The translations under genes and the position numbers were made by a program. The notes under the pieces were generated by a model. It saw only the letters and a list, made by a program, of their open reading frames with translations. It was not told the DNA's origin and did not search any database. Shown here piece by piece: positions 7,290 to 64,000 of a DNA stretch of 64,000 nt. Each line of letters opens with the position of its first letter. The stretch's first letter is position 1. The DNA is from an uncultured Bdellovibrionales bacterium (lineage in GTDB: Bacteria; Bdellovibrionota; UBA1018; CAIPTA01): the NCBI GenBank assembly GCA_964416595.1, contig CAYQES010000006.1, positions 44,414 to 108,413 on the forward strand, in the 5' to 3' direction.

Positions 7290-8576
7290 CTAAGCACGCA
7301 GCGCGTCTTTCAAAAGGCTAAGAGCAAGATGCGTGGCAATCACGCGATTCTGATCTCGGCTACCTTTCCCACTTAAAATCACCTGGTGGAGGATTTTCGA
7401 ACCCGCCTTGTTCGAAAGCGCTACATAAATAGTGCCCACGGGTTTTTGGGCGCTGCCCCCACCGGGGCCAGAAATGCCTGACAAAGCTAGCGCGTAATCA
7501 GCGCCGGTTTGTTGTCGTAAAGATTCAGCCATTTGTCGCACAGTGGCTTCGGAAACGGCGCCTTCCGTTTGCAGTATGGTTTTGGGCACAGCCAAAAATT
7601 TTTCCTTCCAAGCATTATGATAAGTCACAAGGCTGCCCAAAAAATATTCCGAAGAGCCGGGAAGATCCGTGAACATCTTGGCCAAGAGACCGCCTGTACA
7701 ACTTTCGGCTAAAGCTAGGGTAGATTTTTTTTCTTTGAGTAGTCCCGCCACCACTTGCACCAAATCTTCCCGTTGGTGTGTGAATGCAATATCTCCTAGA
7801 GCAGCGTCTATTTTTTGGCTGACAGTTTTTATTTCCTCTTGGCTAGGGGATTTTTGCCCCGGGATCTTCCAGCTTTCTAAAGTGAGATCGATGCAAGGGA
7901 AGGTGATATGCACACCAAAATAAAAAGTTTGCGGATATTTTTTTTCAAGCGGCTCAATAAGGCTCGCGACCCGTTGGTACACTTCGCTCTCACCCCGGCC
8001 AAAGGTGCGCCAGAATTTTCGTTCTTGTAATTTTTTACGAGCCATTTTTTTGGCGAGGCCTGGTAAAATTTCTTCGGCGAAGATCGGCCGGCATTCATTG
8101 GGCGGGCCAGGCAGAAAATAAAAAAGAGATTTCCCTTTTTTTACGGCAAGCCCGGGAGCTGTGCCCGTGGGATTGGATAAAATTTTACTGCCCTTTAGCA
8201 CAAGCGCGAGGCGCTGGCGCTGCTCTGTAAGAGGCAAACCGCGGGCAAGGTAGCGGGAGCGCACATGTTCGAGGGAGGCTTTTGTGAATTGGAGCGGGAG
8301 TTTTAAGGCTTTAGCGGCGCTCGCCAGAGTGCGATCATCATTGGTGGGCCCGAGGCCCCCCGTAACAATCGTGACCGGAAAAGCGGCGGCCGCTTTTAGG
8401 GCGCCCCCAATATCTTCCGTGCGATCAGAAACGCAGCGCACCTCGCTTACACTCAAGCCATGTTCTCTTAATTTTTCTGCGAACCAAGTGGCGTTGGTGT
8501 TGGGAGTTCGGCCATCCAGCAATTCATCACCGATGGATAGGAGAAAAATGCCGAGGTTAGAGGGAGTTTTTTTCAT
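7290..8576 (-). CDS. cinA: Competence/damage-inducible protein CinA (MoCF-biosynthesis-like N-domain plus CinA C-terminal nicotinamide-nucleotide amidase domain)
   Basis: The product is 428 aa. The N-terminus MKKTPSNLGIFLLSIGDELLDGRTPNTNATWFAEKL is typical of CinA. The gene lies immediately upstream of recA, as in the classic cinA-recA operon. Confidence 0.85.
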   Translation of the reverse strand: MKKTPSNLGIFLLSIGDELLDGRTPNTNATWFAEKLREHGLSVSEVRCVSDRTEDIGGALKAAAAFPVTIVTGGLGPTNDDRTLASAAKALKLPLQFTKASLEHVRSRYLARGLPLTEQRQRLALVLKGSKILSNPTGTAPGLAVKKGKSLFYFLPGPPNECRPIFAEEILPGLAKKMARKKLQERKFWRTFGRGESEVYQRVASLIEPLEKKYPQTFYFGVHITFPCIDLTLESWKIPGQKSPSQEEIKTVSQKIDAALGDIAFTHQREDLVQVVAGLLKEKKSTLALAESCTGGLLAKMFTDLPGSSEYFLGSLVTYHNAWKEKFLAVPKTILQTEGAVSEATVRQMAESLRQQTGADYALALSGISGPGGGSAQKPVGTIYVALSNKAGSKILHQVILSGKGSRDQNRVIATHLALSLLKDALRA

Positions 8577-8577
8577 C

Positions 8578-9075
8578 TTACGCTAGGGAAAAACCAAAGA
8601 AGGAGTTGGCGAGCTGCAAGGTTACGTAGAGCAGGAGGGTGGCAAAAATGGCGGCGGCCATATCATCTAACATGGCACCTAAGCCCCCCTTCACTTTGGC
8701 ATCGATCCAACGGATGGGACCGGGTTTAAAAATGTCGAAGAAACGAAAAAACACAAAAGCTAGTGCATAGTGCCACCACAAATGTTGGGTAATGCTCGTG
8801 GTGAAAAGAATGCCCGCCACTTCATCGATAACTATGGTTTGATGATCCTCTGTGCCTGTTTTTTGGATTACTTTTTTTGCGGCCCAAACGCCCAAGAGAA
8901 AAATTATGATCGCGGTGCCCCAAGCAAATTCAGCAGGAAGTTTCCACATCCACCACGCTAGCGGTAGGGCTGCAAGGGAGCCAAAAGTGCCAGGAGCTTT
9001 GGGCAGTTTTCCAACGTAGAAAAAAGTGGCGATGCATTGGGCAATGGAAAAGTTCATGGCTCGAGATTCCAGCAT
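8578..9075 (-). CDS. pgpA: Phosphatidylglycerophosphatase A
   Basis: The PgpA signature segments are GSLAALPLAW..., IDEVAGI... and FDIFKPGPIRWIDAKVKGGLGAMLDDMAAAI. The stop lies 2 nt before the cinA start. The start may instead be the internal Met at 9057. Confidence 0.8.
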   Translation of the reverse strand: MLESRAMNFSIAQCIATFFYVGKLPKAPGTFGSLAALPLAWWMWKLPAEFAWGTAIIIFLLGVWAAKKVIQKTGTEDHQTIVIDEVAGILFTTSITQHLWWHYALAFVFFRFFDIFKPGPIRWIDAKVKGGLGAMLDDMAAAIFATLLLYVTLQLANSFFGFSLA

Positions 9076-9170
9076 AAAACCGCGCCGGATGCGAGCGGAT
9101 AAATCTACATAAAATGCACCTTTACGTCCCCTTGATCATCCATTAGGGTGAAGGGCAGAGGGGTAATGGT

Positions 9171-10430
9171 TTGGATTCACAGCAGCACGAAATATTAGAA
9201 TTCGTGGATTCCCTGCGCTTGGGGCGCGAGGTCATGAACCTCATGCTAAAAGGCCGCAGCGTGATCGATTCCCACCACGGTTTGCCTTTGCACACAGTGG
9301 AAGCGGCCGATGAGTTTTTGTTGCGCTATGGTTTTAATTTAGAAAATCCCGTGGAGCGGGCTGAAGTGTTGGGCAACTACCAAGAGGCGTTACGATTCAT
9401 TCGTAAATATTTTCTAAAACCCGAAAATCCTGATGGCGCCGATCTTGAGATTCCTAAAAATTTTCAGGAACTAGTGGATGTTCGTCTGCTCTTTATTTGG
9501 GCCGCCGATAAAGCTTTGGGCCAAGCTGTGCGGGCCCGCTGGGCGTGTGCCGTGCTGCGGGTGATGCATGCCATTTCCCACTTAGATAAAGATTTGCGCC
9601 ACGATTTTTTCCCGGACATCCAAAAACAAATCTTCGATCGTTTTTATAAAGAAATTCATTCAGAGAATGAGGGCTTGTATTTGGGCGATCCGAAATCTGC
9701 CGCTTCTGTGCCCCTGGAAAAATTTCTCACCAAGCCCCGCAAAACCCGGGATTCCGTGATTTTGAAATTGCTCCATAAAAAAGAAACCCTGGCCGAAGAT
9801 GTGTTCGATCAGATCGGCGTGCGTTTTGTGACCAAAAACCGCGTGGATGTTGTGAAGGTGCTAAAATATTTACGGGATCGTTACATTGTTATGTCGATGA
9901 ATTTACGCCCCTCCCGCTCCCGCAATAATTTGGTGGATCCGCTTCTCTACCGCCGTACTTGGCGGGAAATCCGGCAAGCGGTGCAAAAGGGCGAAGTAAT
10001 GGACCGCGCGCGCGTGATCAGTGCTTTAGAGAAGGCTGTGGGTAGGGGTTACTCGGAATCGCAAAAAGAAATTGGCGAACACAATCCTTTTTCCAGCCGG
10101 GAATTTCTCTCGATCCAATTTACTTGCCGACAATTAATCAAATACCGCAGCCCTGCCTACGAAGAATTAAAAGCGTTGCGGGCCCATTTAAAAAATACGG
10201 GTGACGAAGAGACGAAGAAAATATTAGAGCGCCTGGATTTCGGACAGCTCGCCAAAGAGCAGCGCTTCTTTTATCCCTTCGAGGTGCAAATCTTGGATCG
10301 GGAAAATTTCGAAGAGGCTGAGAGCGGCCGTGCCTCCCATGCTTCTTATAAAGCCGCGCAGACGCGTATGGCGATGAAGCGGGTGCTTGGGCAATTGCTG
10401 CTGGATTATAGCGAAGAAGCGAAGGGGTAG
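9171..10430 (+). CDS. Hypothetical 419-aa protein with a central RelA/SpoT-like (alarmone-synthetase-type nucleotidyltransferase) domain
   Basis: RKTRDSVILKLLHK resembles the R-x-K-x3-S-x3-K ATP-binding motif. DQIGVRFVTKNRVDVVKVLKYLRDRYIV follows, resembling the D-x-x-G-x-R plus beta-strand motif of the RelA_SpoT synthetase domain. The flanking about 180-aa N-terminal and about 150-aa C-terminal regions are unassigned. Confidence 0.45.
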   Translation: MDSQQHEILEFVDSLRLGREVMNLMLKGRSVIDSHHGLPLHTVEAADEFLLRYGFNLENPVERAEVLGNYQEALRFIRKYFLKPENPDGADLEIPKNFQELVDVRLLFIWAADKALGQAVRARWACAVLRVMHAISHLDKDLRHDFFPDIQKQIFDRFYKEIHSENEGLYLGDPKSAASVPLEKFLTKPRKTRDSVILKLLHKKETLAEDVFDQIGVRFVTKNRVDVVKVLKYLRDRYIVMSMNLRPSRSRNNLVDPLLYRRTWREIRQAVQKGEVMDRARVISALEKAVGRGYSESQKEIGEHNPFSSREFLSIQFTCRQLIKYRSPAYEELKALRAHLKNTGDEETKKILERLDFGQLAKEQRFFYPFEVQILDRENFEEAESGRASHASYKAAQTRMAMKRVLGQLLLDYSEEAKG

Positions 10431-10648
10431 GGCCGCCGCGGGGTGGCGCCGAAGAATTGTAAGACGAAGATCAACCCCTAACACTCCCACCTGCCTCCGC
10501 ATAAAACTCCATTACTTTGCACGCGCTAAGTAAATAAATTGTACCACTGCCTGGGGCGCGCAAGGTGAGCATGTCACTCAAGAACCCGCAGCCCGGCGCA
10601 AAAAATTCTCTTCCTACTAAAACACGGCTTTCCTGCTAGAATCCTTCC

Positions 10649-12118
10649 ATGCATTTTTTCTTCCTGGTCCTTGCAGTACTAGCCACAGCCGCAGTCCCCA
10701 CCGTTACCACTAACTCGGCGAAAGAACCCTCCACCTTCCGCGTGCGGCTTGTGGAAGATCTCGGCACCCTCGATTGGAACTACGGAGAGATCAATCCGGA
10801 AATTTCTTATCAGCTAATGGAAGGCCTGTTCCGCACCAATGCCAAAGGCCAGGCGGTGCCGGCGGCGGCTAGAAGCTTTCGTTGGAATAAGGAAAAAACG
10901 GAACTTGTGGTGCAGCTCGATCCTGAGAGTCGCTGGAGCGATGGTTCGCCCCTCTGTGCCCAGCAGTTTGTGGATTCTTGGCAACGCTTAAAAGATAAAA
11001 CCTTCGCTTCTCCCTATGCGCACTATGCCCATACTTTAAAAAGTTTTGAGGCCAAGAGTTGCCGGGAGTTGCGGGTAAAATTTGAGCGGCCTAGCCCCGA
11101 AGCCACGGCGCTCTTTGCCCATTATGTGTTTTTTCCGATTCGCCTCGATCAGTTGAAAAAATCCCCGCAAATTTTTAAAGAGGGCGTGGGTTTGCTCGTG
11201 AATGGTCCTTATCAAGTGCAAGAGTGGAAAACAAACCAGAATCTCATGCTTCTGCGCAACCCTAGGTATGGGCGGAAAAAACCTGTGGTGGAACGGCTCG
11301 AGTTTTATTTTATTCCCGATGAAAATACCGCGCAGGTGATGTTTGAGCAAAAACGCATCGATTGGCTAAAAGATGTGCCACAGCTACTACGCACCAAAAC
11401 CATGGAGAAGAGCGCTGCCTTTCAAAGTTTTCCGAATCTTACGACATTTTATTTTGGCTTGAATGTGGGCAAATCAGAATTATTGCAAGACGAAGAAATC
11501 CGTTTTGCTTTGAGTGAAAGCTTGGACCGAAAAGAAATTTCCAAGATCCTCGGGAAAGAATACAAGGGCACAAAAGACTGGCTGTCGCCGGTGATTTTTC
11601 CCGCTCTCACGCCAGCCGCCACAGCCAATAAAAAGAAATTAGAAAGCGCCCGCAAAAAACTTGAGGCCGCCAAAGCCGCCGGTAAAATGGATTTGCTCTT
11701 AAGGGTGTATAGCAAAGCCGCCCACCGGTCCCTGGCCGAATGGGCCCAGGGGCAATGGGAGAAAAAACTTGGCGTGCGCATTCCCATAGAAGTGATCGAG
11801 GCCAAGGTGTACTGGCGGGAAATCTACACCGATCCGCCACCGATTTTCTTGAGCGGCGTAACGGCGCCTTATAGCCACCCGCGGGCGTTTCTCCAAGAAT
11901 TTCTTTCCACGAGTACTGCTAACTGGACAGGCTGGAGTTCTCCTGAGTACGACAAAGCTGTGAATGAAGATTTATTCCAAGAGGCCGAAGATATTTTGCA
12001 AAAGAGCGGCGTGATTGTGCCGCTCTACACGAGAGACACAGTGGCCCTAATCAATCCCCGCTGGAAAGGGTTTTACATTAATCCTTTAGGGCAGATTTTT
12101 CTGGGCGACTTACGCTAG
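10649..12118 (+). CDS. Solute-binding protein, ABC transporter family 5 (oligopeptide/dipeptide-binding-like), secreted
   Basis: The signal peptide is MHFFFLVLAVLATAAVPTVT. The family-5 SBP core is RVRLVEDLGTLDWNYGEI...YQLMEGLFR. No permease or ATPase genes are adjacent. Confidence 0.7.
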   Translation: MHFFFLVLAVLATAAVPTVTTNSAKEPSTFRVRLVEDLGTLDWNYGEINPEISYQLMEGLFRTNAKGQAVPAAARSFRWNKEKTELVVQLDPESRWSDGSPLCAQQFVDSWQRLKDKTFASPYAHYAHTLKSFEAKSCRELRVKFERPSPEATALFAHYVFFPIRLDQLKKSPQIFKEGVGLLVNGPYQVQEWKTNQNLMLLRNPRYGRKKPVVERLEFYFIPDENTAQVMFEQKRIDWLKDVPQLLRTKTMEKSAAFQSFPNLTTFYFGLNVGKSELLQDEEIRFALSESLDRKEISKILGKEYKGTKDWLSPVIFPALTPAATANKKKLESARKKLEAAKAAGKMDLLLRVYSKAAHRSLAEWAQGQWEKKLGVRIPIEVIEAKVYWREIYTDPPPIFLSGVTAPYSHPRAFLQEFLSTSTANWTGWSSPEYDKAVNEDLFQEAEDILQKSGVIVPLYTRDTVALINPRWKGFYINPLGQIFLGDLR

Positions 12119-13013
12119 TTTTGCGTTTGGCGGCTTTGGGCTTATTTTCTACCTTCTCCAAAAAAGAACGGATGATTTCTGTCACCAGATCCGCCTTTTC
12201 CATCTGCGGGCAGTGGGAGCCCTCGGGGATCACATGCAATTCTGCATTGGGTATAAGTTCCGCAAAAATTTTCTGGTTCTTTGAAGGCGTGATCAAATCG
12301 TTTTCGCCAGCGATCACGAGCGTGGGCGCTTTCACTTCCTGGAGCCAGTGGGTGCAGTCGGTTTTCATAAAATCGCTGATAAGGTTTAAAAAAATATCAA
12401 GATCTACAGTGCTCGTGAGGCGAAGGTATTCGTTGATATCTTCCCGTTTGGCGTACTTCGGATTGAAGCCTGCGAGGGCTACGAATTCCCGGTTGATGGG
12501 ATTGGTGCCTTGGTTCGCCCAGACTTTTTGTAAAATATCGGGAATAAAGCCGTGGGCTTTCTGCAAGAGGGGGAAAAGCACTTGCAGAAAATTGTGATGG
12601 AACATGGTTTCGAACGGATCTTTTGGCGTGCCGTTGGCTAATACGAGGGCCTGCACCCGTTCTGGCGCGAGGCGATAGAAATCCAAAATGATGTTCACGC
12701 CGAGGGAGTGGCCCAGCAAAGGAGCTGATTTAATTTCCAATTCGTCGAACAGCTCCAAAAGATCCCGGGCACAGCTTTCGATTGTCATGGTGCGGGCGTC
12801 TTCCGGGCGGGCGCTTTGGCCGTGGCCCCGGTAGTCCATGAAATACACCCGGTGGGTTTTGGCAAAGGCCTCCATTTGGTATTTCCACTGGAGCTTGGAA
12901 CACACAAGGCCATAGCAAAAAACTAAGGGCGGGGCATTTTTCGGGCCTTCGATAGAATAAAAAAGGCGCACTCCATCGCGGGTGCGGAAATAGCCCTGTT
13001 CTTCGCGGCTCAT
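12078..13013 (-). CDS. Alpha/beta-hydrolase fold protein
   Basis: The nucleophile elbow is GHSLG, with the HGxxxS-like context FCYGLVCSKLQW...MDYRGHGQS. The C-terminal tail is lysine-rich. The 3' end overlaps the convergent SBP gene by about 40 nt. Confidence 0.75.
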   Translation of the reverse strand: MSREEQGYFRTRDGVRLFYSIEGPKNAPPLVFCYGLVCSKLQWKYQMEAFAKTHRVYFMDYRGHGQSARPEDARTMTIESCARDLLELFDELEIKSAPLLGHSLGVNIILDFYRLAPERVQALVLANGTPKDPFETMFHHNFLQVLFPLLQKAHGFIPDILQKVWANQGTNPINREFVALAGFNPKYAKREDINEYLRLTSTVDLDIFLNLISDFMKTDCTHWLQEVKAPTLVIAGENDLITPSKNQKIFAELIPNAELHVIPEGSHCPQMEKADLVTEIIRSFLEKVENKPKAAKRKTSVSRPEKSALKD

Positions 13014-53362: not shown

Positions 53363-54478
53363 TTGAAACGCGTAAAAGTAATCGTAAGCGATTTTCATTT
53401 GGGTAAAGGGCCATTGCTGAAAGATGGCACCGTAAACATTTTGGAAGATTTTCGTTTTGGTCCTTCGTTTGTGGAGTTTCTAAATTACTACCGCACGGGC
53501 GAATATGAAAACTGCGAAGTGGAGCTCGTGATCAACGGCGATTTTTTGAATCTTCTGCAGATCGATTATTTCGGCGTGCACAGCTATTTGATTACGGAAC
53601 GCATGGTGAATCACGCGGTGAGGTCTATCTTGGATGGGCATGCGGAAGTTTTTCAGGCTTTGCGTGAGTTTGCTTCCACTCCTCATCATGCGATTGCTTA
53701 TATTATCGGCAACCACGATATTGGTTTGCTATTTGATGGGCCGCGGAAATTGTTACGGGAAGCCGTTGGACCAAACTTACGTTTTTACGATACCTACTAT
53801 GAATTCGAGCGAGTGCGGGTAGAGCACGGTCATATGTACGAAGCCATCAACGCCACGAACCCCCAGCGATTTTCGTTGCGGGATCCCGATTACCCGGAGC
53901 CTGTGTTGAATTTGCCCTGGGCATCTTTATTCGTGACAATCTTTTTGCCGAAGATCAAAAAAGAGCGGCCATTTGTGGATAAGGTGAAACCGTTCACGGG
54001 CTATATGCGCTGGGCTTGGCTGCACGACACTTTCTTCGCGCTGCGGATTTCTTTTTTTATTTTATTGTCGTTTTTGCGAATGCTTTCGTTGGCCCGGAAA
54101 CATCCATTGCTGGATTTTAAGATCAGCTTGGCGCGGCTAAAGGGAACCACGATTTATCCGAGCTTCGTGAAGGAGGCTAGGAAGATTTTGCGGCTAAATC
54201 CACATCTCCAGGCCGTGATCTTCGGTCACACCCATGTGCTTCGCTATCGGCAGTGGGGTGGGGGTAAGGAATATTTCAATACCGGAACTTGGAACGAAGT
54301 AACGAGTTTGGACATTGCGGATTTTGGTCTACAGACGTTGCTCACCTATGCATACGTGGAATTGCCAGAGGCTGGTAGCTCGGCGGAGGCTGGCCCCAAG
54401 GCGCGGATCCGCTTGAAAGAGTGGCGGGGCATGTGGCGGCCGGAGGTGGATACTAGCGTGATGCCGGTGGGGAGATAG
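53363..54478 (+). CDS. Membrane-associated metallophosphoesterase, 371 aa; paralog of 30874-31989
   Basis: The motifs are SDFHLG, GDFLN, GNHD and GHTHV. The internal hydrophobic stretch is FFALRISFFILLSFLRML. It has the same length and motif order as the 30874-31989 protein. Confidence 0.75.
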   Translation: MKRVKVIVSDFHLGKGPLLKDGTVNILEDFRFGPSFVEFLNYYRTGEYENCEVELVINGDFLNLLQIDYFGVHSYLITERMVNHAVRSILDGHAEVFQALREFASTPHHAIAYIIGNHDIGLLFDGPRKLLREAVGPNLRFYDTYYEFERVRVEHGHMYEAINATNPQRFSLRDPDYPEPVLNLPWASLFVTIFLPKIKKERPFVDKVKPFTGYMRWAWLHDTFFALRISFFILLSFLRMLSLARKHPLLDFKISLARLKGTTIYPSFVKEARKILRLNPHLQAVIFGHTHVLRYRQWGGGKEYFNTGTWNEVTSLDIADFGLQTLLTYAYVELPEAGSSAEAGPKARIRLKEWRGMWRPEVDTSVMPVGR

Positions 54479-54588
54479 GTTGTAGAGGCATACGGCATCG
54501 TCACTTTGTATTGGCTAGGCCACTACAAAAAAACCTAGCAGCAAAATACAGAGTCCGTGCATCCCCCAGTAGGGTGGAGCTAGTGTAT

Positions 54589-55857
54589 TCATAATTCCAA
54601 AATAGAAAATAAGTTCGCGTCTTCCATGGCATTTTGCGTAGCCCTTTGGGCTTCGCGGTTCATCTGTTTTATTTGCGGGTCAGACAAAACTTTTTCCACT
54701 GCTTGAGCAATACGCTGGGCCCCCGCTTTTCTTAAAGGGAGCACTAATCCTAACTGACGATCTTTTATTCTCTGCGCGATGAAGGGTTGATCATTGGTGA
54801 TTGGAATGCAAACCATTGGCACGCCAAAGTAAATGCATTCCGCCACGCTATTGGCCCCCCCGTGCGTGATCATGCACGCCGCGTATGTGAGCACGGAAAT
54901 TTGGTCCACAAATGGCACGAGTTCTACATTCGGCGGCAAGCCTTCTAATTCCTTTAGCTGGGTGTTATATCGCCAGGCACCGCGGGAAAGGAGAAATTTT
55001 CGATGGGGGAGCAGGGTCGCCGCCTCGATCACATTCTGGTAGAGATCCAGTAAACCTGTCTGGAGAGTACCAAAAGAGCAATACACCAAATTTGGGTCGC
55101 GCTCCGTAACCACATTTTTTGCATGATCCAGTAAGCGCATGGGCCCGAGGTAATGCATCGACCTCTGCTCCCGGGGTAAAGGTCGCATGGGAAAATCTAG
55201 AAACTCGGGCATCTGCGTGAGCGTGAGAAGCGGAGAATAACTTTCCCGTAAAGAACAAAAAGTCGGTTGCCCATTGGATTTAGCCAAGTGATTGCCCTCT
55301 CGCAGAATCATTCCATACCAAGATTCCAGTACGAGATGCATCACTTTATTCAACCATCGCCGCCAACGGGAATTTGATTTATAACCCCAGGGTGCGCCGG
55401 GGGGGGGATACTGAGGGTCTAAAGAAAGGGGAAAGTGAATGGCGCAAGCGAAGGAATAAAAAGGCACACCCACCGCCTGGGCGATGGCTGCTCCCTGAAA
55501 CTGCAACTGGTCCACCAAAAATTTATCAATTCCTAAGGCGCGTGCGTGGCTCGGAATTTCCTTGCACATCATCTGCGCGAGGCGCCGATGAAGGAGGCCA
55601 GTGCGTAGGGTGGTCAAAAGCCCGTGGCCGCGGGAGAGTTTACCCCACTCTCTTTCCATCGAACCTAAAGGAAAAGTTTTTTGGCCAATTTCCACCGCTT
55701 CGACGCCTTGCTGACGTACAAGGGCAAGAGAATCGGCTAGTGTAAAAACGGTGACGCGATGGCCTCGTTTCCTCAAAATCCGCCCCAAATTGCATAAGGG
55801 GAGCAAATGTCCAGGCACCGGCGAACTAATGATTCCGAAATGATGGGTGGATTTCAA
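54589..55857 (-). CDS. GT1-family UDP-glycosyltransferase (MGT / CrtX / RhlB-like)
   Basis: The N-terminus is SSPVPGHLLP. The UDP-sugar-binding signature is HGGANSVAECIYFGVPMVCIPITNDQPFIAQR. Confidence 0.75.
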   Translation of the reverse strand: MKSTHHFGIISSPVPGHLLPLCNLGRILRKRGHRVTVFTLADSLALVRQQGVEAVEIGQKTFPLGSMEREWGKLSRGHGLLTTLRTGLLHRRLAQMMCKEIPSHARALGIDKFLVDQLQFQGAAIAQAVGVPFYSFACAIHFPLSLDPQYPPPGAPWGYKSNSRWRRWLNKVMHLVLESWYGMILREGNHLAKSNGQPTFCSLRESYSPLLTLTQMPEFLDFPMRPLPREQRSMHYLGPMRLLDHAKNVVTERDPNLVYCSFGTLQTGLLDLYQNVIEAATLLPHRKFLLSRGAWRYNTQLKELEGLPPNVELVPFVDQISVLTYAACMITHGGANSVAECIYFGVPMVCIPITNDQPFIAQRIKDRQLGLVLPLRKAGAQRIAQAVEKVLSDPQIKQMNREAQRATQNAMEDANLFSILEL

Positions 55858-56921
55858 TGGTTCTTCCTCTCACGCATCCATTCGCGCCCAACCCGGCCTA
55901 GGGTATGCCAGAAGGAAACGCGTAAGCTGTTGTGAAAGGCGTGGGGTGGTTGGATTTTTTCTAGGGCCAACGCGTGGGCTGCGGGCAAGGAGTAGTAGGG
56001 AATGCCCGGGAAAAGATGATGGGTGGCGTGGAAATTCAAATGGAAGGGGGCCCAGATCCACGCCAAGCTGCTGCGCTCTACCACGTTCGTGCCGGCGAGG
56101 TGCACGTCCAAATAATGCTCTTTTTCCGTAAAACCCACGTGATAGTTATGTAAAACGAGCGTGCGCACAAATGCTGTCGCTGAAGAAAAAGCCACGCCAA
56201 AATACCATACCAATAATAACTTCGGATTATGAAAGGTCCAGGTGGCGCCAATTTGGACCATTGTGATCACTAGGCACGCGAGGTCAGCGCGGAGCATCTC
56301 GCTTGCCTCCTCGGGGTCTGGACCCACACGCTGGAATCCACTTTCAAATTGAATCGTAGACCACCGGCGAAAAACAAAATCACGCGCGCGCTTTCCCACT
56401 AGTACCCAGCCAATCGTAACGAAGCTGAAACGCAACAAAAGGATCAGCGGAGAAGCCAAAGGCTCAAGCACAATCTTAAACGGCAAAAAAAACCAAGGAT
56501 TCTTTTCCCGCAAGTCAAAATGTTCCGGATCGTCAATAGTGCCAAACCTATGCGCCGAATGGTGCACTCGGTGCAGGCGAAATAAATAGATTGGCAGCCT
56601 CAGCCAGTAGCCGAGAAATAGATCGTAGATCCTAGCCAAATGAGAAACTTTCATTTCTAAATGTACCACCTCGTGAGCAAAACCAATCGCACGGGAAATT
56701 AAAATGATGCTAATGAGGAAAAAAATAAAATTTAGCGGTTTTGAATTCCAGCTGTAGCAGGCGAGAAAGAATCCCAACCACGCGAGGCTTGCCACCAAGA
56801 AGAAATCGCGGAAAATGCGCCCGTGGGATACGAAAAAAAGTGAACGTTGCTGAGAGGCTTCCCTTAGTTCCGTCATAGAAATACTGTCAGACCAATTGAC
56901 TTTCTGACCACTAGTGTTCAT
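55854..56921 (-). CDS. Membrane fatty-acid-desaturase-family di-iron enzyme (His boxes HEVVH / HRVHH / HATHH)
   Basis: Three His boxes with desaturase spacing and multiple transmembrane segments are present. The stop overlaps the downstream GT start by 4 nt. Confidence 0.75.
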   Translation of the reverse strand: MNTSGQKVNWSDSISMTELREASQQRSLFFVSHGRIFRDFFLVASLAWLGFFLACYSWNSKPLNFIFFLISIILISRAIGFAHEVVHLEMKVSHLARIYDLFLGYWLRLPIYLFRLHRVHHSAHRFGTIDDPEHFDLREKNPWFFLPFKIVLEPLASPLILLLRFSFVTIGWVLVGKRARDFVFRRWSTIQFESGFQRVGPDPEEASEMLRADLACLVITMVQIGATWTFHNPKLLLVWYFGVAFSSATAFVRTLVLHNYHVGFTEKEHYLDVHLAGTNVVERSSLAWIWAPFHLNFHATHHLFPGIPYYSLPAAHALALEKIQPPHAFHNSLRVSFWHTLGRVGREWMRERKNH

Positions 56922-57832
56922 GTAATACTGCTCCGGTACGGAGCTACCGCGAAGAGATGTTCCCGCTCTAAGGATTCCGTGAGAGTGCGGTGGCCTGATT
57001 TCTCGATAAGAGTGCGAATTTTTTTCAGTCGCTCACCGATTCTTCCTTCCCAATCAATTTCCCGCAAGAAATCTTCTTTTTCATTGTTGGTCATGGCCCT
57101 GCCTTCGGCTTCTATCGCTTGGCTTACCCAGTTGGCACTCACCAAGGCTTTCATGAAAATTCGCGTGGCTTCAAAAATCCTATCGTGGTCATTAGCAGAA
57201 ACAGTCGATTGCGACCAGAGGAGTAAACCGCTCCCATGGTGATTGGCTTCGTCTTGAAGCACATTGGTAAAAACTGCTCTTAGTTGAGGATCTTTACAGC
57301 CCTCTCGTAAACTATGGTAGTGCATAATTCCGAAACCCTCGAGCAGCACTTGCACGATAAAAATAAGCACTTCACGACTACTCCCAGTGATGATTTCGGA
57401 TAGTGCGGGCAGTAGGGGGTGAAATTCATATTTTGAACCGGGTTGCTCCACGAGAAAGAGTTCGATCATTTTGCGGTGGAGAGTTTCTTCACCAACCATC
57501 AGGGAGTATAACGACTTTTCTTCTACCGATTCCGCCAAGAGAATCATTTTGGCGCCGAAGTGCAGTCCCGATTTTTCAATGAAGTAAGCGAGCGTAAGGC
57601 TCTGTTGGCTCAACCTCCGCAGCACCTGTTCGCGGGATGCGGAGCTCATCGAGCGAAAAATAGCACTGCGATCTAGCCCCCACTGAGTATCATCCCAATA
57701 TTGGCCCGCAAAATCAGCGCCAGGAAGCGGAAGCTCTATTTTCTTACGCAGAACAGAATCCAATAAAGCGGTAAGACGAGAATCCACGGAAAGATTAGGA
57801 GCGCTTAAACCGGAGGTGAAGTTAATTTTCAT
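56918..57832 (-). CDS. Ferritin-like di-iron-carboxylate protein (putative oxygenase/desaturase)
   Basis: Two E-x-x-H motifs (EETLH, DEANHH) and additional conserved Glu (YFIEKSG, LLEGFG) suggest a four-helix-bundle di-iron site. Confidence 0.45.
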   Translation of the reverse strand: MKINFTSGLSAPNLSVDSRLTALLDSVLRKKIELPLPGADFAGQYWDDTQWGLDRSAIFRSMSSASREQVLRRLSQQSLTLAYFIEKSGLHFGAKMILLAESVEEKSLYSLMVGEETLHRKMIELFLVEQPGSKYEFHPLLPALSEIITGSSREVLIFIVQVLLEGFGIMHYHSLREGCKDPQLRAVFTNVLQDEANHHGSGLLLWSQSTVSANDHDRIFEATRIFMKALVSANWVSQAIEAEGRAMTNNEKEDFLREIDWEGRIGERLKKIRTLIEKSGHRTLTESLEREHLFAVAPYRSSIT

Positions 57833-58463
57833 GTGTCATCTCCACTTTTTGGTTGGGATACAAACGCGTGCCTGCCTCTACTTGCGCTTTTTCCGCAATA
57901 CATACACCGGGGGCAACGTGGCTCGCATAGCCGACCAGCGAACGAGCGCCGATCGTGAGGGGTTTATAATAGACGAGAATGCGTTCGTGCGTCCTCTTCA
58001 CGATGTGGCCGGAGAGGGTTACGTCGTTTCCAAAAATGACAAAGTTGCCTAACTTAAGTGCGGTTCGATCAAATACCTGTACCCCCGGCGACCAAAAAAT
58101 GCCGGTGCCAATTTTACTTCCCCACAGCCGCAGCCAGAAACTAAACGCACCAGGGAAAAGCATCAGCATCCGTTCGAAGAATGAAAAGGAGATAAAAAAA
58201 ATCTGGAGACGGTTAGAGATGTACCAACTATTTGCGACCGCCTCCCGGCGTCCCACGTAACTTACGCCTTCGCGAATTGGGAAAAACAAAGCAAAAATTC
58301 GCCACAGGAGAAGCGGCAAAACAAAAATAACCATTGGCAACAGCGATAACTTAAGCCAACTAAAAGAAATGAAAGTGGAAGCCACCAGAACGCCGATTAT
58401 CAATAGATGCAAGGCCGGAAAAAATGTGGCCGCAGTTTCAAAGATCTTTGGAGGCTTGCGCAT
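57822..58463 (-). CDS. Membrane-anchored hexapeptide-repeat (left-handed beta-helix) acyl/acetyltransferase
   Basis: Two N-terminal transmembrane helices are present. The LbH repeats are IGTGIFWSPGVQVF, LGNFVIFGNDVTLSGHIV and IGARSLVGYASHVAPGVCIAEKAQV. Confidence 0.55.
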   Translation of the reverse strand: MRKPPKIFETAATFFPALHLLIIGVLVASTFISFSWLKLSLLPMVIFVLPLLLWRIFALFFPIREGVSYVGRREAVANSWYISNRLQIFFISFSFFERMLMLFPGAFSFWLRLWGSKIGTGIFWSPGVQVFDRTALKLGNFVIFGNDVTLSGHIVKRTHERILVYYKPLTIGARSLVGYASHVAPGVCIAEKAQVEAGTRLYPNQKVEMTHEN

Positions 58464-59190
58464 CGCCTAACCTTTCTGGGAAAAGGCGCACTAGCGAGCT
58501 GTAACGCGTGTTTTTTCCTTCTTTCAAAGCGACGAACTCATGAAAAATGGCCTCCATCAAATCGGCCGTAAGATCCAAGGAACGCAACATAACCGCTTCC
58601 ACTGCGCGCAGATCCTCGTCGGAATTAACAAATTGTTTAATCACTTCCGCCACTTCGATGGCATGGGTTTGGTCGATTTCTGCGTGTTGCACAAGAAAGC
58701 TCATTTGCTCGGGCTGCACTCCTAAAGAGCTAGTGAGCATCTTTAGGATCGGTTGAATGTATTCGTAAGATCGCTCTGCCCAGTAGCTATATCCCAGCCG
58801 GCCCAATGGATTTCCTTCGCGGGAAATTTGGTAAAGGTAGTCCACCAACGCTTGGGTTTCGGGCAGGGGCACGGGTAAATCATCGGGGGTGATCGACTGA
58901 CCAGAAATTTTTTGCAGATCGTAGAGAGCTAGGTTCTCGTGGCCTAATTCCTCGGTGGCGTGCTTTAGGCAATAACGGAGGTAATTGATATCAATATTCT
59001 CCGAACGCGCGGCCACCGCGGCTTGATTTTTCGCGTTGTGCCTAGTGTAGTGATAGGTTTCCACTAAATAAACTGCATAGAGTCTTAAATCAGCAAAGTT
59101 AGGCGATAGGGCTCGCAAGAGATTTGGACGATCCATGAGAGATCCCATGCGCGAGAGTAGGCTTTGGTCTAATGTATCCATTTTTTTCAC
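58438..59190 (-). CDS. Heme-oxygenase-like fold iron enzyme (HDO / iron-containing redox enzyme family, TenA/PqqC-like)
   Basis: An all-helical 250-aa protein with candidate metal ligands in TEELGHE and HAEIDQTHAIE. The start overlaps the upstream gene by 4 nt. Confidence 0.45.
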   Translation of the reverse strand: MKKMDTLDQSLLSRMGSLMDRPNLLRALSPNFADLRLYAVYLVETYHYTRHNAKNQAAVAARSENIDINYLRYCLKHATEELGHENLALYDLQKISGQSITPDDLPVPLPETQALVDYLYQISREGNPLGRLGYSYWAERSYEYIQPILKMLTSSLGVQPEQMSFLVQHAEIDQTHAIEVAEVIKQFVNSDEDLRAVEAVMLRSLDLTADLMEAIFHEFVALKEGKNTRYSSLVRLFPERLGDAQASKDL

Positions 59191-59921
59191 GGGAAAATTC
59201 CCCCGGCCTTGGCCAAGAGGCCGTTGCCAAAATATTTTTGAAGTTTTTGACGAATCTTTAATTCCGTGGTTTGGATCCGCTCAGCCCTACTGATGATCGT
59301 TTCCATGGAAGCCGCAAGTAGTAGATAATGGCCGTTCCTTGAAGGGAGTTCGAATGCTTGTGGTAATATGTTGCGCATGCCAAATTTGGCGTAGATCGGA
59401 AACTTTGCTTCCCGGCAAACTGCCACGAGACCTTTCGGGTTAAACCGATCCACCGCAAGTTTTCCCGCCGAGCAAATCAGAAAGCGGAGGATCAGGGGGC
59501 TCAAAACTATATCTGGATTTATTACCAAGCGGCTAAATTCAACGTGGTCACGGTATTTTTGCCAATCCACCGGCAAGTCACTCAATAGCGACTGCGCCTC
59601 GAACGGAAATTTCGTTGCCCGGATGGAGGCGATGAGGGTGTGGCCAAGCCGTAGGGCGAGATGCACGCTACGGGCATCCACTGCGCGCTCGAGCTCAACT
59701 TCCTTCTCGTCACGAGCGCACATATAAGGCGCATGCCGCGTAAAATAAGCGGTTCGCAGGTTTGCAACGTCCAGGAGAGCTCGAGGATTCACTAAAGGTT
59801 CGATGAAGTCGAGCTTGAGATCGCTGGGTAATGCATTCAGTGTTTCTTGTGTTAGTTGGTACGCTATACTCTCACGGAAATGCACGGCGCCTCCTTTCGT
59901 AAATACGTCCAATTGCGCCAT
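59187..59921 (-). CDS. GNAT-fold N-acyltransferase of the LuxI / FeeM / OlsB (N-acyl amino acid synthase) superfamily
   Basis: LRTAYFTRHAPYMCARDEKEVELERAVDARSVHLALRLGHTLIASIR parallels the R-x-x-vF...E-x-D-x-x-D...H-l-l...G-t-l-R core of autoinducer-synthase-like enzymes. The long ORF extends to 60125 but would overlap the upstream desaturase by 262 nt. The internal Met at 59921 was chosen. Confidence 0.45.
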   Translation of the reverse strand: MAQLDVFTKGGAVHFRESIAYQLTQETLNALPSDLKLDFIEPLVNPRALLDVANLRTAYFTRHAPYMCARDEKEVELERAVDARSVHLALRLGHTLIASIRATKFPFEAQSLLSDLPVDWQKYRDHVEFSRLVINPDIVLSPLILRFLICSAGKLAVDRFNPKGLVAVCREAKFPIYAKFGMRNILPQAFELPSRNGHYLLLAASMETIISRAERIQTTELKIRQKLQKYFGNGLLAKAGGIFP

Positions 59922-61009
59922 AGAAGGGTGGCAAAAAAACGCCAAAATCCTTGGCGGCGAGAAAAACCAAAAAAACTTAGCTGCTCGGTCGTGAGTAACT
60001 GGTGTTTTAGGTAAAAATGTAAGCGCCACTGCTGGATCCAAGTTAGGCTCGGTCCCAGGTGGTGCGAAAAATGAAATATTTGTCCCCAAGGTCCGCCACC
60101 TACTAGAAGTTCCGTGATTCCACACCCCAATTCGCGGGTGCCGGCATTTAACTCCGCGGGCATTAGATTATGTTCAAAAGAATCACGAATCCTATCGAGA
60201 GAAAGCCCAACCCAGGTGGAAATGAAAACCAATCCGATCAGCGCGATCCACCAGTCAAGGTAGCGCGACAATAAAATCAACTCGATGCTTAAAGTTACCG
60301 CGCCCACAAAATAAGAGACTAAACGCGATCGCGTCCAAGTTTCTTCACCGTAAACCTGAAAATCCACCTTAAAAAGAACGCCGGCGCCGGGCAGGAGGGT
60401 TTTCGCGAGTCTCCTCGGATCTACAAATTGCACAAAAGTTTGATCTTTAAGGGTGCCTAGCTGGGAATGGTGGCTCGCATGATTTTCAGCGTAAAAAAAT
60501 GGATCGGCAAAAAATAGACGGCAAGCGTTTTGGGCGAGAAAGTGTAAAAATTTCGATTTCGTGACGCGCCTAATGGTCTGGTGCGCTGCCCATTCGTGCA
60601 TCGTATAGATTACCCACTGGTAAGCAAATACTCCGTGAAATAGACCCACCGCGAGGGCCACCAAGAGGGGATGTAAGCCGGCCTTTAAAAGTAATGGTGG
60701 AAACCAAGTGAGCAAAAGCACGAACAACAAAAATAGAAATAACACTGGCACTAGTTGTAAGAGAAAAGCGGAGGTGTGTTGTTGGCTATCTTTACGCAAC
60801 AAGGTGGTTATAAATAGTTTTATTTTTTCATTCTGAATTACTGAAAGACGAACACCCTGTATCGAATCATGTTCGCGGGAGTAGCGAGAAAATGCTGAAA
60901 TTTCGGCGGGATATGTTTTCATTTCGACCGACTCCATCCACTCTATGACATCGGGATGCCTGTTTGCGCGAAGAAATACCCTCGCCACAATAGATAGCAT
61001 AAAATTCAA
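59864..61009 (-). CDS. Membrane fatty-acid-desaturase-family di-iron enzyme (His boxes HEWAAH / HASHH / HFSHH); first gene of the operon
   Basis: Three His boxes and four or more transmembrane segments are present. Confidence 0.75.
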   Translation of the reverse strand: MNFMLSIVARVFLRANRHPDVIEWMESVEMKTYPAEISAFSRYSREHDSIQGVRLSVIQNEKIKLFITTLLRKDSQQHTSAFLLQLVPVLFLFLLFVLLLTWFPPLLLKAGLHPLLVALAVGLFHGVFAYQWVIYTMHEWAAHQTIRRVTKSKFLHFLAQNACRLFFADPFFYAENHASHHSQLGTLKDQTFVQFVDPRRLAKTLLPGAGVLFKVDFQVYGEETWTRSRLVSYFVGAVTLSIELILLSRYLDWWIALIGLVFISTWVGLSLDRIRDSFEHNLMPAELNAGTRELGCGITELLVGGGPWGQIFHFSHHLGPSLTWIQQWRLHFYLKHQLLTTEQLSFFGFSRRQGFWRFFATLLWRNWTYLRKEAPCISVRV

Positions 61010-61199
61010 TCATCTAGCTAAAATCTTAAGTCGAGGCACAAAAAATGCGGTTATCTTGGATCTTAATTTGTCAGAAAGGCCGAACGATATTCTGGAAATG
61101 ATAAAATCAAGTATTAGCCTTAAAGTGTGCTTATCGTAAGCGCGCCAGCTTTTAGTCTCGCCAAAGCCAGCGCACTCCTTTACAGAAAGCCAACTTAAA

Positions 61200-62114
61200 C
61201 TAAAAACACGGCTTATATTCTCGTGCTACCCGCAAAGTTTTCTGACCTGGTTTGCTCTGGGGTCGTAGCACTTGCCAATAATTTTTGTTTGAAGGAAAAA
61301 TCTTTCCCGTGCGAGCGAGATCTCGTCCCAAAATCGTAAGTCCGCACTCCAAGTTCTGCACTCCATCCAGAGAATCCATGCCCCGGCGGCAGCCATAGGC
61401 GTATTCTTTTCCGAGATGCAATTGCAATAAACCGGCGGCGATGCCGTTTACTCCCTGGGCTTTTACGCGCTCATTGCAGGAGCTTTCGAAATTGGCCATG
61501 GAAGCGATCAACCACACCCAGAAATTCTTTTTGTCTGCCTCGTTCATTTCCCGAAAGCGGGGGCAAACCATATCTAGATCTGCGTAATGATCCGCAAAAA
61601 GCTGGGGGTGTTCCTGGGGATTGATGCGATTCATAAGATAAGCGCCCCAATTGCCAAACTCTCCCCGCTCGTTAATGAAGCGTGTGCAGTTTTTATTCAC
61701 GCCAAGTGCTTTCGGATCAAAAGGGTGACGGCTGGTGGTATTAGTAGAAAATACTTCCTCCGCCGTTTTTTTCTCCGAGCCCACTTCCACAGACTCCACT
61801 ACAGGTTGTTTAAATAAGTAAGCGGGTCGCTCCACTCGCAAGGTTTCGCCCACTTTTACGGTCATGCCTTTTTCCAACTGCAGCCAATATTTTTTTCCTT
61901 TCACCAGCACTTGGGCGAAGTGATGACCGCCAGCTAAAACTCGCAATCCCACAACGGGATAACTATCTCCAGGCTGAGCGATGCCTGCCACTTGTTCCTG
62001 GGCGGAGAGAGTGAGGAGTTCAGGCAGGCCTGTTTCCTGGCCAAAAGCTAATCTGGCGGTGAAAAGTAAAGCGAGCCCCACGGCTAGCCAGGTGGTTAAG
62101 TTTATTCCCTTCAT
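61200..62114 (-). CDS. Secreted lytic transglycosylase-like protein (SLT domain)
   Basis: The signal peptide is MKGINLTTWLAVGLALLFTARLAFG. The SLT catalytic E-S motif is FESSCNE, with a downstream GLLQL motif. Confidence 0.6.
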   Translation of the reverse strand: MKGINLTTWLAVGLALLFTARLAFGQETGLPELLTLSAQEQVAGIAQPGDSYPVVGLRVLAGGHHFAQVLVKGKKYWLQLEKGMTVKVGETLRVERPAYLFKQPVVESVEVGSEKKTAEEVFSTNTTSRHPFDPKALGVNKNCTRFINERGEFGNWGAYLMNRINPQEHPQLFADHYADLDMVCPRFREMNEADKKNFWVWLIASMANFESSCNERVKAQGVNGIAAGLLQLHLGKEYAYGCRRGMDSLDGVQNLECGLTILGRDLARTGKIFPSNKNYWQVLRPQSKPGQKTLRVAREYKPCF

Positions 62115-62231
62115 ACGTATGCCTCCTTGAAGTCAAGCAACGCTGAACGGAATGGAAAAAAACTCTGCAACCGGTCGGGTCGGCTGAAGAATTCATCAAA
62201 TTGGGCGTGAGTTCAGTATGTATGCGCTTGT

Positions 62232-62271
62232 AAAGATTTGTCAAAAAAATCTTTAAACGGTTCCGTTTAAA
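62232..62271. promoter_or_regulatory. Nested inverted repeats in the AT-rich kdsB upstream region: AAAGATTT-N7-AAATCTTT overlapping TTTAAACGG-tt-CCGTTTAAA
   Basis: The repeats were read directly. They are followed by the small hairpin AGTTGC-ggt-GCAACT plus CTTTTTC at 62326-62347. Confidence 0.3.
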
Positions 62272-62459
62272 TTAAATATATTTATAAATATAAATAATTT
62301 ATTAAAAAGGGGGTAACTCGGCGAAAGTTGCGGTGCAACTCTTTTTCAAAAATCCAACATGACTCATAGCATAATTCACCCAAATAACTCTAGCAAAAAT
62401 CCCAAAATCTACGCTTTTCCCTTTACCTATTGCAGCGCTCTCTACTAGAGTGAAATTCC

Positions 62460-64000
<1,541 letters not shown>

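Follow-up and report, generated by a model that had tools for sequence, protein, structure and literature searches.

Heme-oxygenase-like dimetal oxidases (HDOs) form a superfamily that has been estimated to hold at least 19,778 members (PMC13185094). The reaction has been established for only about a dozen of them, and nearly each of these revealed new chemistry (PMC13108848, a 2026 review). The present analysis concerns a gene at positions 58438-59190 (minus strand) that very probably encodes an enzyme of this type, hereafter the window HDO. The window is the whole stretch of 64,000 nucleotides that was analysed, and it comes from an uncultured Bdellovibrionales bacterium (assembly GCA_964416595.1, contig CAYQES010000006.1, positions 44,414 to 108,413 of the forward strand). 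The clade of the window HDO is evolutionarily coupled, by adjacency and by fusion, to a probable FeeM/LuxI-like N-acyltransferase, which is represented here by the upstream gene X (59187-59921, minus strand).

Most HDOs have a ligand pattern of three histidines and three carboxylates (3H/3C), and in all substrate-bound structures of 3H/3C HDOs the substrate ligates Fe1 (PMC13108848). The nearest characterised relative of the window HDO by profile is MboA (mangotoxin acetylenase; PDB 9YPI/9YPL/9YPM), which was detected at E=1.1e-8 when the family profile was compared with the PDB. MboA is a peptide side-chain acetylenase; its substrate is the C-terminal residue of an N-acylated (peptidyl) compound, the carboxylate of which is bound to Fe1 (PMC13185094). 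UndA (1-undecene synthase; PDB 4WWJ, 6P5Q) has a 3H/3C site as well, and its substrate is also bound to Fe1 through a carboxylate (PMC13108848). BesC, CtCADD, the 4-aminobenzoate synthase 9PJ4 and the HDO domain of SznF belong to the same superfamily, and share the core helix 3 motif H-x3-[DE]-x2-H with the window HDO; whereas the spacing in core helix 1 of the BesC/CADD group is different (for example, E-x6-H in CADD). The substrates of these enzymes are free amino acids or a tyrosine of the enzyme itself, and SznF is a multidomain protein with a 3H/4C site. Thiaminase II of the TenA/THI-4 type and PqqC have the same helical-bundle fold, but lack the six metal ligands.

Only one crystal structure is available from the clade of the window HDO, 3DDE (Sden_3740) from Shewanella denitrificans OS217. 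This structural-genomics entry of 2008 bears only the description 'domain of unknown function with a heme oxygenase-like fold', and literature searches found no report of its function, metal content or substrate, nor anything on the 3DDE clade as a whole.

Family assignment and predicted metal site

The window HDO was matched by PF14518 (Haem_oxygenas_2, 'iron-containing redox enzyme') with 64.1 bits (gathering cut-off 28.9, E=1.9e-17), and the match spans profile positions 3-175 of 177. The family assignment itself is not new, because some NCBI records already label homologues as 'iron-containing redox enzyme family protein'. In the NCBIfam search no model scored above its threshold, and no heme oxygenase family of Pfam was matched. 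The window HDO is outside the MboA, UndA, CADD, TenA, PqqC and heme oxygenase families in the narrow sense.

By far the best PDB sequence match was 3DDE (phmmer E=7e-54, residues 6-233 aligned). The identity is roughly half by eye in the phmmer alignment and 40% in the Foldseek structural alignment, and 3DDE reached E=2.5e-91 against the HDO family profile. The printed alignment shows that both proteins have the E-x-G-H-E, LGYSYWAE and H-x3-D-x2-H motifs. A word-indexed protein search with the window HDO returned 241 homologues; together with the Pfam and 3DDE matches and the near-invariant motifs, this is far more than chance would give. The exhaustive profile search, counted in clusters at 50% identity, gave 77 clusters at E<=1e-30, 504 at E<=1e-10 and 1692 at E<=1e-3; by these counts, the clade makes up a modest part of the superfamily.

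The AlphaFold2 (AF2) model of the window HDO, built with 39 homologues, is all helical (mean pLDDT 92.7, pTM 0.90). The sequence-only reading of this DNA had described a 250-aa all-helical protein at 58438-59190, and the coordinates proved exact and the helical nature agrees with the model. The Foldseek search of the PDB with this model ranked 3DDE first (TM-score 0.82-0.83, rmsd ~2 A), followed by TenA, UndA, CADD, PqqC and HmuO at similar scores, all with a probability of 1.00. The predicted heme-oxygenase-like (HO-like) fold alone cannot tell the dimetal enzymes from TenA, PqqC and the heme oxygenases.

The predicted metal ligands are found in three motifs, all on the minus strand. The core helix 1 motif ELGHE (58936-58950, residues 81-85) contains E81 and H84, the core helix 2 motif RLGYSYWAE (58774-58800) contains E139, and the core helix 3 motif HAEIDQTH (58663-58686, residues 169-176) contains H169, D173 and H176 in the H-x3-D-x2-H arrangement. 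The first and the third motif had been listed as candidate ligand motifs in the sequence-only reading, and both translate as stated and are near-invariant; whereas the second one, with E139, had been missed. In the multiple sequence alignment (MSA) of 39 homologues, which are 35-54% identical to the window HDO, E81, G83, H84, E85, E139, H169 and D173 are among the invariant columns, and H176 is kept in at least 90% of the sequences. Ligand conservation was also counted in 123 close homologues and in 149 representatives from the exhaustive search. E81 and H84 are each present in 122/122 close homologues, and in 135/140 and 130/140 of the distant representatives, respectively. The other ligands are similarly conserved: E139 (120/121 close, 131/135 distant), H169 (121/121 and 128/132), D173 (121/121 and 127/132) and H176 (120/121 and 127/132). 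Taken together, the six ligands are ~93-97% conserved among the distant representatives.

In the AF2 model, E81 closes the helix 68-81 and H84 opens the helix 84-96, E139 lies within the helix 132-156, and H169, D173 and H176 are the i, i+4 and i+7 residues of the helix 164-187. The crystallographic ligands of MboA are His89, His172, His181, Glu86, Glu143 and Asp176, and Asp90 is a facultative additional ligand (PMC13185094). The published numbering was moved onto the HMMER alignment, and the offset of the 25-residue tag was validated because all 11 of the 11 residue identities checked agreed. E86, H89, E143, H172, D176 and H181 of MboA correspond to E81, H84, E139, H169, D173 and H176 of the window HDO, and the facultative D90 corresponds to E85. 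The two enzymes thus have the identical 3-His/3-carboxylate set and an acidic residue right after the histidine of helix 1; the helix 3 motif of MboA differs in holding a two-residue insertion.

The complete and conserved 3H/3C pattern, which aligns with that of MboA, supports the reading of the protein as a dimetal enzyme, with a metal site predicted from the alignment and the helix positions. The earlier assignment to the HO-like fold and the HDO family is supported by the PF14518 match, the HO-like Foldseek matches and the alignment of the ligands, and the mapping of the three histidines and three carboxylates that it called for is now available. The closest characterised relative is MboA and not UndA, which had been among the relatives named there and has no detectable sequence similarity.

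Coupling to a probable FeeM/LuxI-like N-acyltransferase

Gene X encodes a protein of 244 aa, which appears to be a very divergent FeeM/LuxI-like N-acyl (amino acid) synthase of the GNAT type. The window copy of X had no match in the Pfam search, and the word-indexed search of 5.8 billion proteins returned only one and two matches for X. The relationship is seen at the family level, and not from the window copy alone. In the alignment of 25 X family members, 10 match PF21926 FeeM (best 8.4e-8), six match PF00765 Autoind_synth and four match Acetyltransf_5. The hhalign comparison of the X family with a LuxI homologue gave a probability of 82%, and one X homologue (P0274) bears a precomputed FeeM domain. 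The family has an E-x-S-R motif, in which the E128 and R131 columns are invariant. The AF2 model of X, built from two sequences, is poor (pLDDT 57), so that its Foldseek matches, which are all GNATs at TM<=0.36 and include FeeM, RpaI, BjaI and EsaI, lend weak support. These sequence comparisons point to membership of X in the FeeM/LuxI GNAT group. FeeM-type enzymes join an acyl group from acyl-acyl carrier protein (acyl-ACP) to an amino acid; LuxI-type enzymes acylate the amine of S-adenosylmethionine (SAM).

Related loci were collected by a scan of one genome per species, which gave 80 loci for the HDO, and the neighbourhoods were compared by tblastn with the operon proteins of the window and by de novo clustering of the neighbouring open reading frames (ORFs). 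The closest loci (up to 55% identity) are all metagenome-assembled genomes of Bdellovibrionota (Bdellovibrionales, Bacteriovoracia and Halobacteriovorax), and by this comparison alone the window would probably belong to that phylum. X is the most conserved neighbour of the HDO: it occurs in ~60/82 related loci, where it lies immediately upstream on the same strand (median offset -673 nt). The record titles of the loci with both genes name groups from about seven phyla, including Bdellovibrionota, Pseudomonas, Zooshikella, Trinickia, Cellvibrionaceae, Corallococcus, Flavobacteriia, Dyadobacter, Pyrinomonadaceae, Frankia and Mycobacterium.

Other recurrent neighbour families are DUF3419, AMP-binding, hexapeptide transferase and ferritin-like proteins, and two architectures are frequent. 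Type A, to which the window belongs, has the order X, HDO, hexapeptide transferase and ferritin-like protein, with or without a transmembrane desaturase and a glycosyltransferase, and is found in ~20 Bdellovibrionota loci; the hexapeptide transferase gene is directly downstream of the HDO in 20 loci of this kind. Type B, with X, the HDO and DUF3419 (a BtaA-like SAM-dependent enzyme), is found in ~30 loci of other phyla, and AMP-binding ligases, an aminotransferase or FemAB-like GNATs often accompany it. A paper on phosphorus scavenging in Pseudomonas names BtaAB solely as a survey item.

The two genes are also fused in several proteins. The fusion P0133 (538 aa) is matched by the X profile with 74 bits at residues 61-226 and has its HDO part at residues 315-530; P0140 is a fusion of FeeM and HDO, and the more distant FeeM-HDO fusions P0197, P0216 and P0232 have FeeM scores of 31-50 bits. 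Fusions of the HDO with the BtaA-like DUF3419 enzyme occur as well (P0146, P0165). Such natural X-HDO fusions argue for a functional link of the Rosetta-stone kind, and it is likely that the HDO and gene X act in one pathway. Tandem HDO-HDO proteins are also found among the natural fusions, a set that includes P0149 and P0206. Two further proteins, P0127 (540 aa) and P0153 (698 aa), carry a C-terminal HDO, and their N-terminal parts look methyltransferase-like and beta-lactamase-like by eye.

The window HDO had earlier been described as lying between two acyltransferases, from which a role in modifying an acylated intermediate had been suggested. Its neighbours are indeed the probable FeeM/LuxI-like GNAT upstream and a putative membrane-anchored hexapeptide-repeat transferase downstream. 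The suggested role is strengthened by X being the most conserved and sometimes fused neighbour, and is still one that we infer.

Within the searchable literature, the systematic coupling of this HDO clade to FeeM-like N-acyltransferases, including the fusions, appears to be undescribed, and so does the tie between the orphan structure 3DDE and the X-HDO module. The clade, with its orphan crystal structure since 2008, thereby gains a clear and testable context: a partnership with a probable N-acyl amino acid synthase that looks obligate and is backed by natural fusions. The X-HDO pair is a good lead for genome mining, and cultured hosts of the cluster exist, including Bdellovibrio sp. HCB337 and the Pseudomonas fluorescens HKI strains.

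Putative substrate pocket and proposed role

Five residues (N52, Q56, R131, S135 and W137) show no variation within the close clade but do vary among the distant representatives, where for example R131 is replaced by Y, S135 by L, and W137 by F or H. R131, S135 and W137, all in the core helix 2 motif, are candidates for clade-specific pocket residues. H77 is more widely kept (131/138 representatives). Four positions match substrate-contacting sites of MboA: N57 is retained as N52, the guanidinium-binding D61 and D139 are replaced by Q56 and S135, and the proposed base Y82 is replaced by H77. The same surface as in MboA would therefore form the substrate pocket of the window HDO. Because D61, D139 and Y82 are replaced, the substrate differs from that of MboA; judged from these residues, the pocket appears to take a non-guanidinium group, probably a neutral polar or carboxylate-bearing moiety. 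The partners are also different. MboA acts with ATP-grasp ligases and the flavin/Fe2S2 reductase MboB; whereas neither ATP-grasp nor flavin/Fe2S2 reductase domains were found in the seven operon genes by Pfam and NCBIfam, and the partner of the window HDO is a predicted GNAT N-acyltransferase.

We favour, with some confidence, the reading that the HDO catalyses the O2-dependent oxidation of an N-acyl amino acid anchored by its carboxylate, as a step in the synthesis of a glycosylated lipoamino acid. Whether this substrate is the very product of X is about an even matter. In the proposed sequence, X would use an activated acyl group (acyl-ACP or acyl-CoA) to acylate an amino acid on its amine, so that the carboxylate of the N-acyl product stays free. 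This carboxylate would coordinate Fe1 in the reduced metal site (di-iron or Fe/Mn), as in UndA, AetD, HrmI, PolF and MboA, and substrate binding would trigger the addition of O2 to form a peroxo-dimetal intermediate. The amino-acid moiety could then be oxidised by two or four electrons, through MboA-like side-chain desaturation, hydroxylation, or oxidative decarboxylation to an enamide; the invariant H77 stands at the position of the proposed catalytic base Tyr82 of MboA. The membrane hexapeptide transferase may then attach an acyl group to O or N of the product, and the ferritin-like di-iron protein and the two membrane His-box enzymes may carry out additional oxidation or desaturation. Glycosylation by the GT1 enzyme would yield a glycosylated lipoamino acid as the end product.

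Several points weigh against this proposal. About 20 of the 82 related loci lack X, and some of them hold a protein with an aminotransferase-condensation-domain fusion instead. The adjacency and the fusions are compatible with either enzyme acting first. The LuxI relatives of X acylate SAM, and such a reaction would yield a lactone, in which no carboxylate is free. The substrate-binding D61, D139 and Y82 of MboA are the very positions that are replaced by Q56, S135 and H77. No reductase partner is encoded in the operon of the window; some relatives have an FMN_red or FMN_bind_2 neighbour. Moreover, literature searches found no biochemical data for any member of the 3DDE clade.

In a wider and more tentative view, the FeeM-like N-acyltransferase and the 3DDE-clade HDO could be a widespread and undescribed two-enzyme module, present in about seven phyla and fused in several lineages, that makes oxidatively tailored N-acyl amino acids. 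The HDO chemistry would then be new for lipid-amide substrates, giving for example dehydro or alkynyl residues, or enamides by oxidative decarboxylation. In the operon of the window, three further di-iron enzymes, a second acyltransferase and a glycosyltransferase might elaborate these products into a new class of glycosylated lipoamino acids.

Alternative functions

The main rival is the reverse order, in which a free amino acid is the substrate of the HDO and the product of this reaction is acylated by X. The HDO reaction could in that case be an N-oxygenation as in SznF, HrmI and RohS, or a C-C fragmentation or desaturation as in BesC and PolF; N-hydroxylation followed by N-acylation, for example, would lead to a hydroxamate-type lipid. 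Free amino acids are used by most of the characterised HDOs (PMC13108848). The adjacency and fusion with X are compatible with this order too, and the invariant pocket residues N52, Q56, H77, R131 and S135 are polar, as would suit an amino-acid head group. BesC and SznF are detected by the family profile; however, the similarity is marginal (E of 0.011 for BesC and ~0.6 for SznF), and MboA, the closest in sequence of the characterised enzymes, works on a residue that is already N-acylated, after the amide bond has been made. A binding site for the alpha-amine is also not identifiable in the HDO sequence. The reverse order is the less likely of the two, and oxidation after acylation is preferred.

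It is improbable that the HDO acts like UndA, decarboxylating a free medium- or long-chain fatty acid to a terminal olefin while the neighbouring acyltransferases and desaturases process a lipid separately. UndA has the same fold (Foldseek TM-score 0.62-0.66) and the same E-x2-H spacing in core helix 1, and the operon is rich in fatty-acid desaturase-like genes. At the sequence level, however, no UndA chain was found among the PDB matches at E<=10, either with the single sequence or with the profile. Judged from the sequence, the conserved pocket positions are polar and would not form a hydrophobic tunnel; moreover, UndA has other conserved neighbours, and the conserved partner of the window HDO is a predicted amide-forming GNAT rather than a thioesterase or a fatty-acid supplier.

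A non-redox or metal-free HO-like protein (a thiaminase II or salvage enzyme of the TenA type, a PqqC-like cofactor-less oxidase or a true heme oxygenase), or a mononuclear-iron variant like FlcD and HamA, is still less probable. The Foldseek scores of TenA, PqqC and HmuO are on a par with those of UndA and CADD, PF03070 TENA_THI-4 gives a partial match (residues 41-146, 3.4e-7), and some JGI records call homologues 'PqqC' or 'thiaminase'; the 'PqqC' names are automatic labels. Against this, the six predicted dimetal ligands are present and near-invariant, and the mononuclear variants lack two ligands of core helix 3 (PMC13108848), both of which are present here. In the MSA of 39 sequences there is no cysteine in the invariant columns or in those conserved at 90% or more, and C74 of the window HDO is substituted in the Pseudomonas and Frankia members. 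TenA requires a catalytic cysteine, which has no conserved counterpart in the HDO family. None of the PqqC, TenA and heme oxygenase models of NCBIfam matched (for PqqC, among the hits at E<=1). The profile matches to TenA (E ~0.65, N-terminal part only) and HO-1 (E ~0.75, residues 1-51 only) are at the ~0.6-0.8 level. The sequence-only reading had named a match to a TetR-like family, or to TenA with a conserved cysteine, as evidence against itself; no helix-turn-helix or TetR family was among the Pfam and NCBIfam matches, and the TenA match is the partial one above.

A CADD-type self-sacrificing p-aminobenzoate synthase for folate synthesis is the least credible reading: CADD and 9PJ4 are among the weak sequence matches (E of 0.26 and 0.011) and the Foldseek TM-score to CADD is 0.68-0.70, but the CADD family model TIGR04305 scores 16.4 bits against a cut-off of 200, the gene lies in a lipid or secondary-metabolite-like operon and not beside folate genes, and it is coupled to an acyltransferase across phyla.

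The operon in the window

Seven minus-strand genes that overlap or abut run from 61009 to 54589. The first one (TM381, 59864-61009) encodes a 381-aa membrane protein resembling His-box desaturases and hydroxylases, and is overlapped by gene X over 58 nt. The invariant residues of the TM381 family are H138/H143, H177/H180/H181, H280 and H313/H316/H317, which include HX4H, HX2HH and HX2HH boxes. PF00487 FA_desaturase is matched by 11/12 members of this family (best 2.6e-12), and the window copy itself has no match.

The HDO gene follows X. Its GTG start shares bases with the stop codon of X (GTGA), and GGGGGA is found 8 nt 5' of this start. Public gene callers place the start 3 codons downstream at an ATG, which gives 247 aa; the database protein P0001 (247 aa) is 100% identical to the window HDO. 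The small plus-strand ORFs that overlap the HDO gene have no support.

Downstream of the HDO, HEX213 (57822-58463, minus strand) encodes a putative membrane-anchored acyltransferase with hexapeptide repeats (left-handed beta-helix). It has weak matches to Hexapep, WcaF, LpxD and the C-terminal domain of Pls/PosA, and its N-terminus is hydrophobic by eye. FER304 (56918-57832, minus strand) encodes a 304-aa ferritin-like protein, probably a di-iron carboxylate protein, that is unannotated and has no Pfam or NCBIfam assignment. The invariant residues of its family (E86, E116, H119, E165, E195 and H198) make up two E-x29-E-x2-H motifs. The family is weakly matched by Ferritin_2 (13/17) and by the ribonucleotide reductase small chain (8/17), and also by Ald_deCOase and AurF, and the aldehyde-deformylating oxygenase 5UXG was matched in the PDB at E=0.003. 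It co-occurs with the HDO in ~20 Bdellovibrionota loci.

The last two genes are FAD355 (55854-56921, minus strand), of the membrane fatty-acid desaturase family (PF00487, E=5.2e-19), and GT422 (54589-55857, minus strand), a GT1 enzyme of the MGT/UDP-glycosyltransferase family. FAD355 is also weakly matched by the model of the arginine hydroxylase GntB and, among the related loci compared, is present only in the cluster version of the window. GT422 is matched by TIGR01426 MGT (1.1e-34), UDPGT (5.2e-16) and EryCIII-like_C, and has homologues in four related clusters (L014, L016, L067 and L072).

As predicted from these families, the operon encodes two acyltransferases, one glycosyltransferase and four putative di-iron enzymes, which fall into three structural classes, and this make-up suggests a lipid or glycolipid pathway. 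An operon with four such putative di-iron enzymes also appears to be undescribed in the searchable literature, and it may encode an unknown lipid of predatory bacteria.

The scan of 54300-62500 for promoters and terminators found sites no more frequent than in shuffled sequence, so the limits of the operon rest on gene spacing and strand only. A transglycosylase-like gene just upstream (61200-62114, minus strand, 304 aa) was considered as a member of the operon and rejected, as it is conserved in no related locus; its product has a weak SLT transglycosylase match and is probably unrelated. The GC content is 0.47-0.49 across the operon against ~0.51 overall, and this composition profile does not clearly indicate horizontal transfer of the operon. 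No tRNA gene was found in the scan of the window.

Variation among the related clusters

Five Bdellovibrionota loci (L007, L011, L014, L016 and L020) have two HDO paralogues per cluster; whereas the window has only one. In the complete genome of Bdellovibrio sp. HCB337 (L067; NZ_CP178621.1, ~1.023-1.040 Mb), a type A cluster contains the HDO, X, the hexapeptide transferase, the ferritin-like protein, the glycosyltransferase and the transmembrane desaturase.

A five-gene cluster of X, HDO, DUF3419, a class I/II aminotransferase and an AMP-binding ligase was found in L045. It is flanked by a Sua5/YrdC-family gene, and by quinone-oxidoreductase-like and coproporphyrinogen oxidase genes. The same gene families occur in the same order across the loci L039-L064 of the Pseudomonas fluorescens group (including HKI0770, L049, and HKI0874, L045), at locus positions of ~7330-12400.

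In six loci (L022, L023, L025, L032, L034 and L082), a PF04299 FMN_bind_2 (PaiB-like) gene is located next to X and the HDO or separates the two. By analogy with MboB for MboA, its product is a candidate for a dedicated redox partner.

A more distant HDO (~42% identity) was found in Pseudomonas syringae pv. actinidiae (L085 and L086, on ~73-kb contigs with an adjoining relaxase gene) and in Pseudomonas sp. Tri1 (L004). The pv. actinidiae cluster appears to be plasmid-borne, and would thus be a plasmid-borne variant in a kiwifruit pathogen. These clusters contain a LuxR-type regulator, TrpE/G-like anthranilate synthase genes, an AMP-binding ligase, a 181-aa gene, the HDO, an FMN reductase, an EamA exporter and a hydrolase, and may encode an aryl-acyl signalling or virulence metabolite. 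The 181-aa gene was grouped with X in the loci L077, L080 and L084, and the Tri1 locus additionally holds a LuxI synthase.

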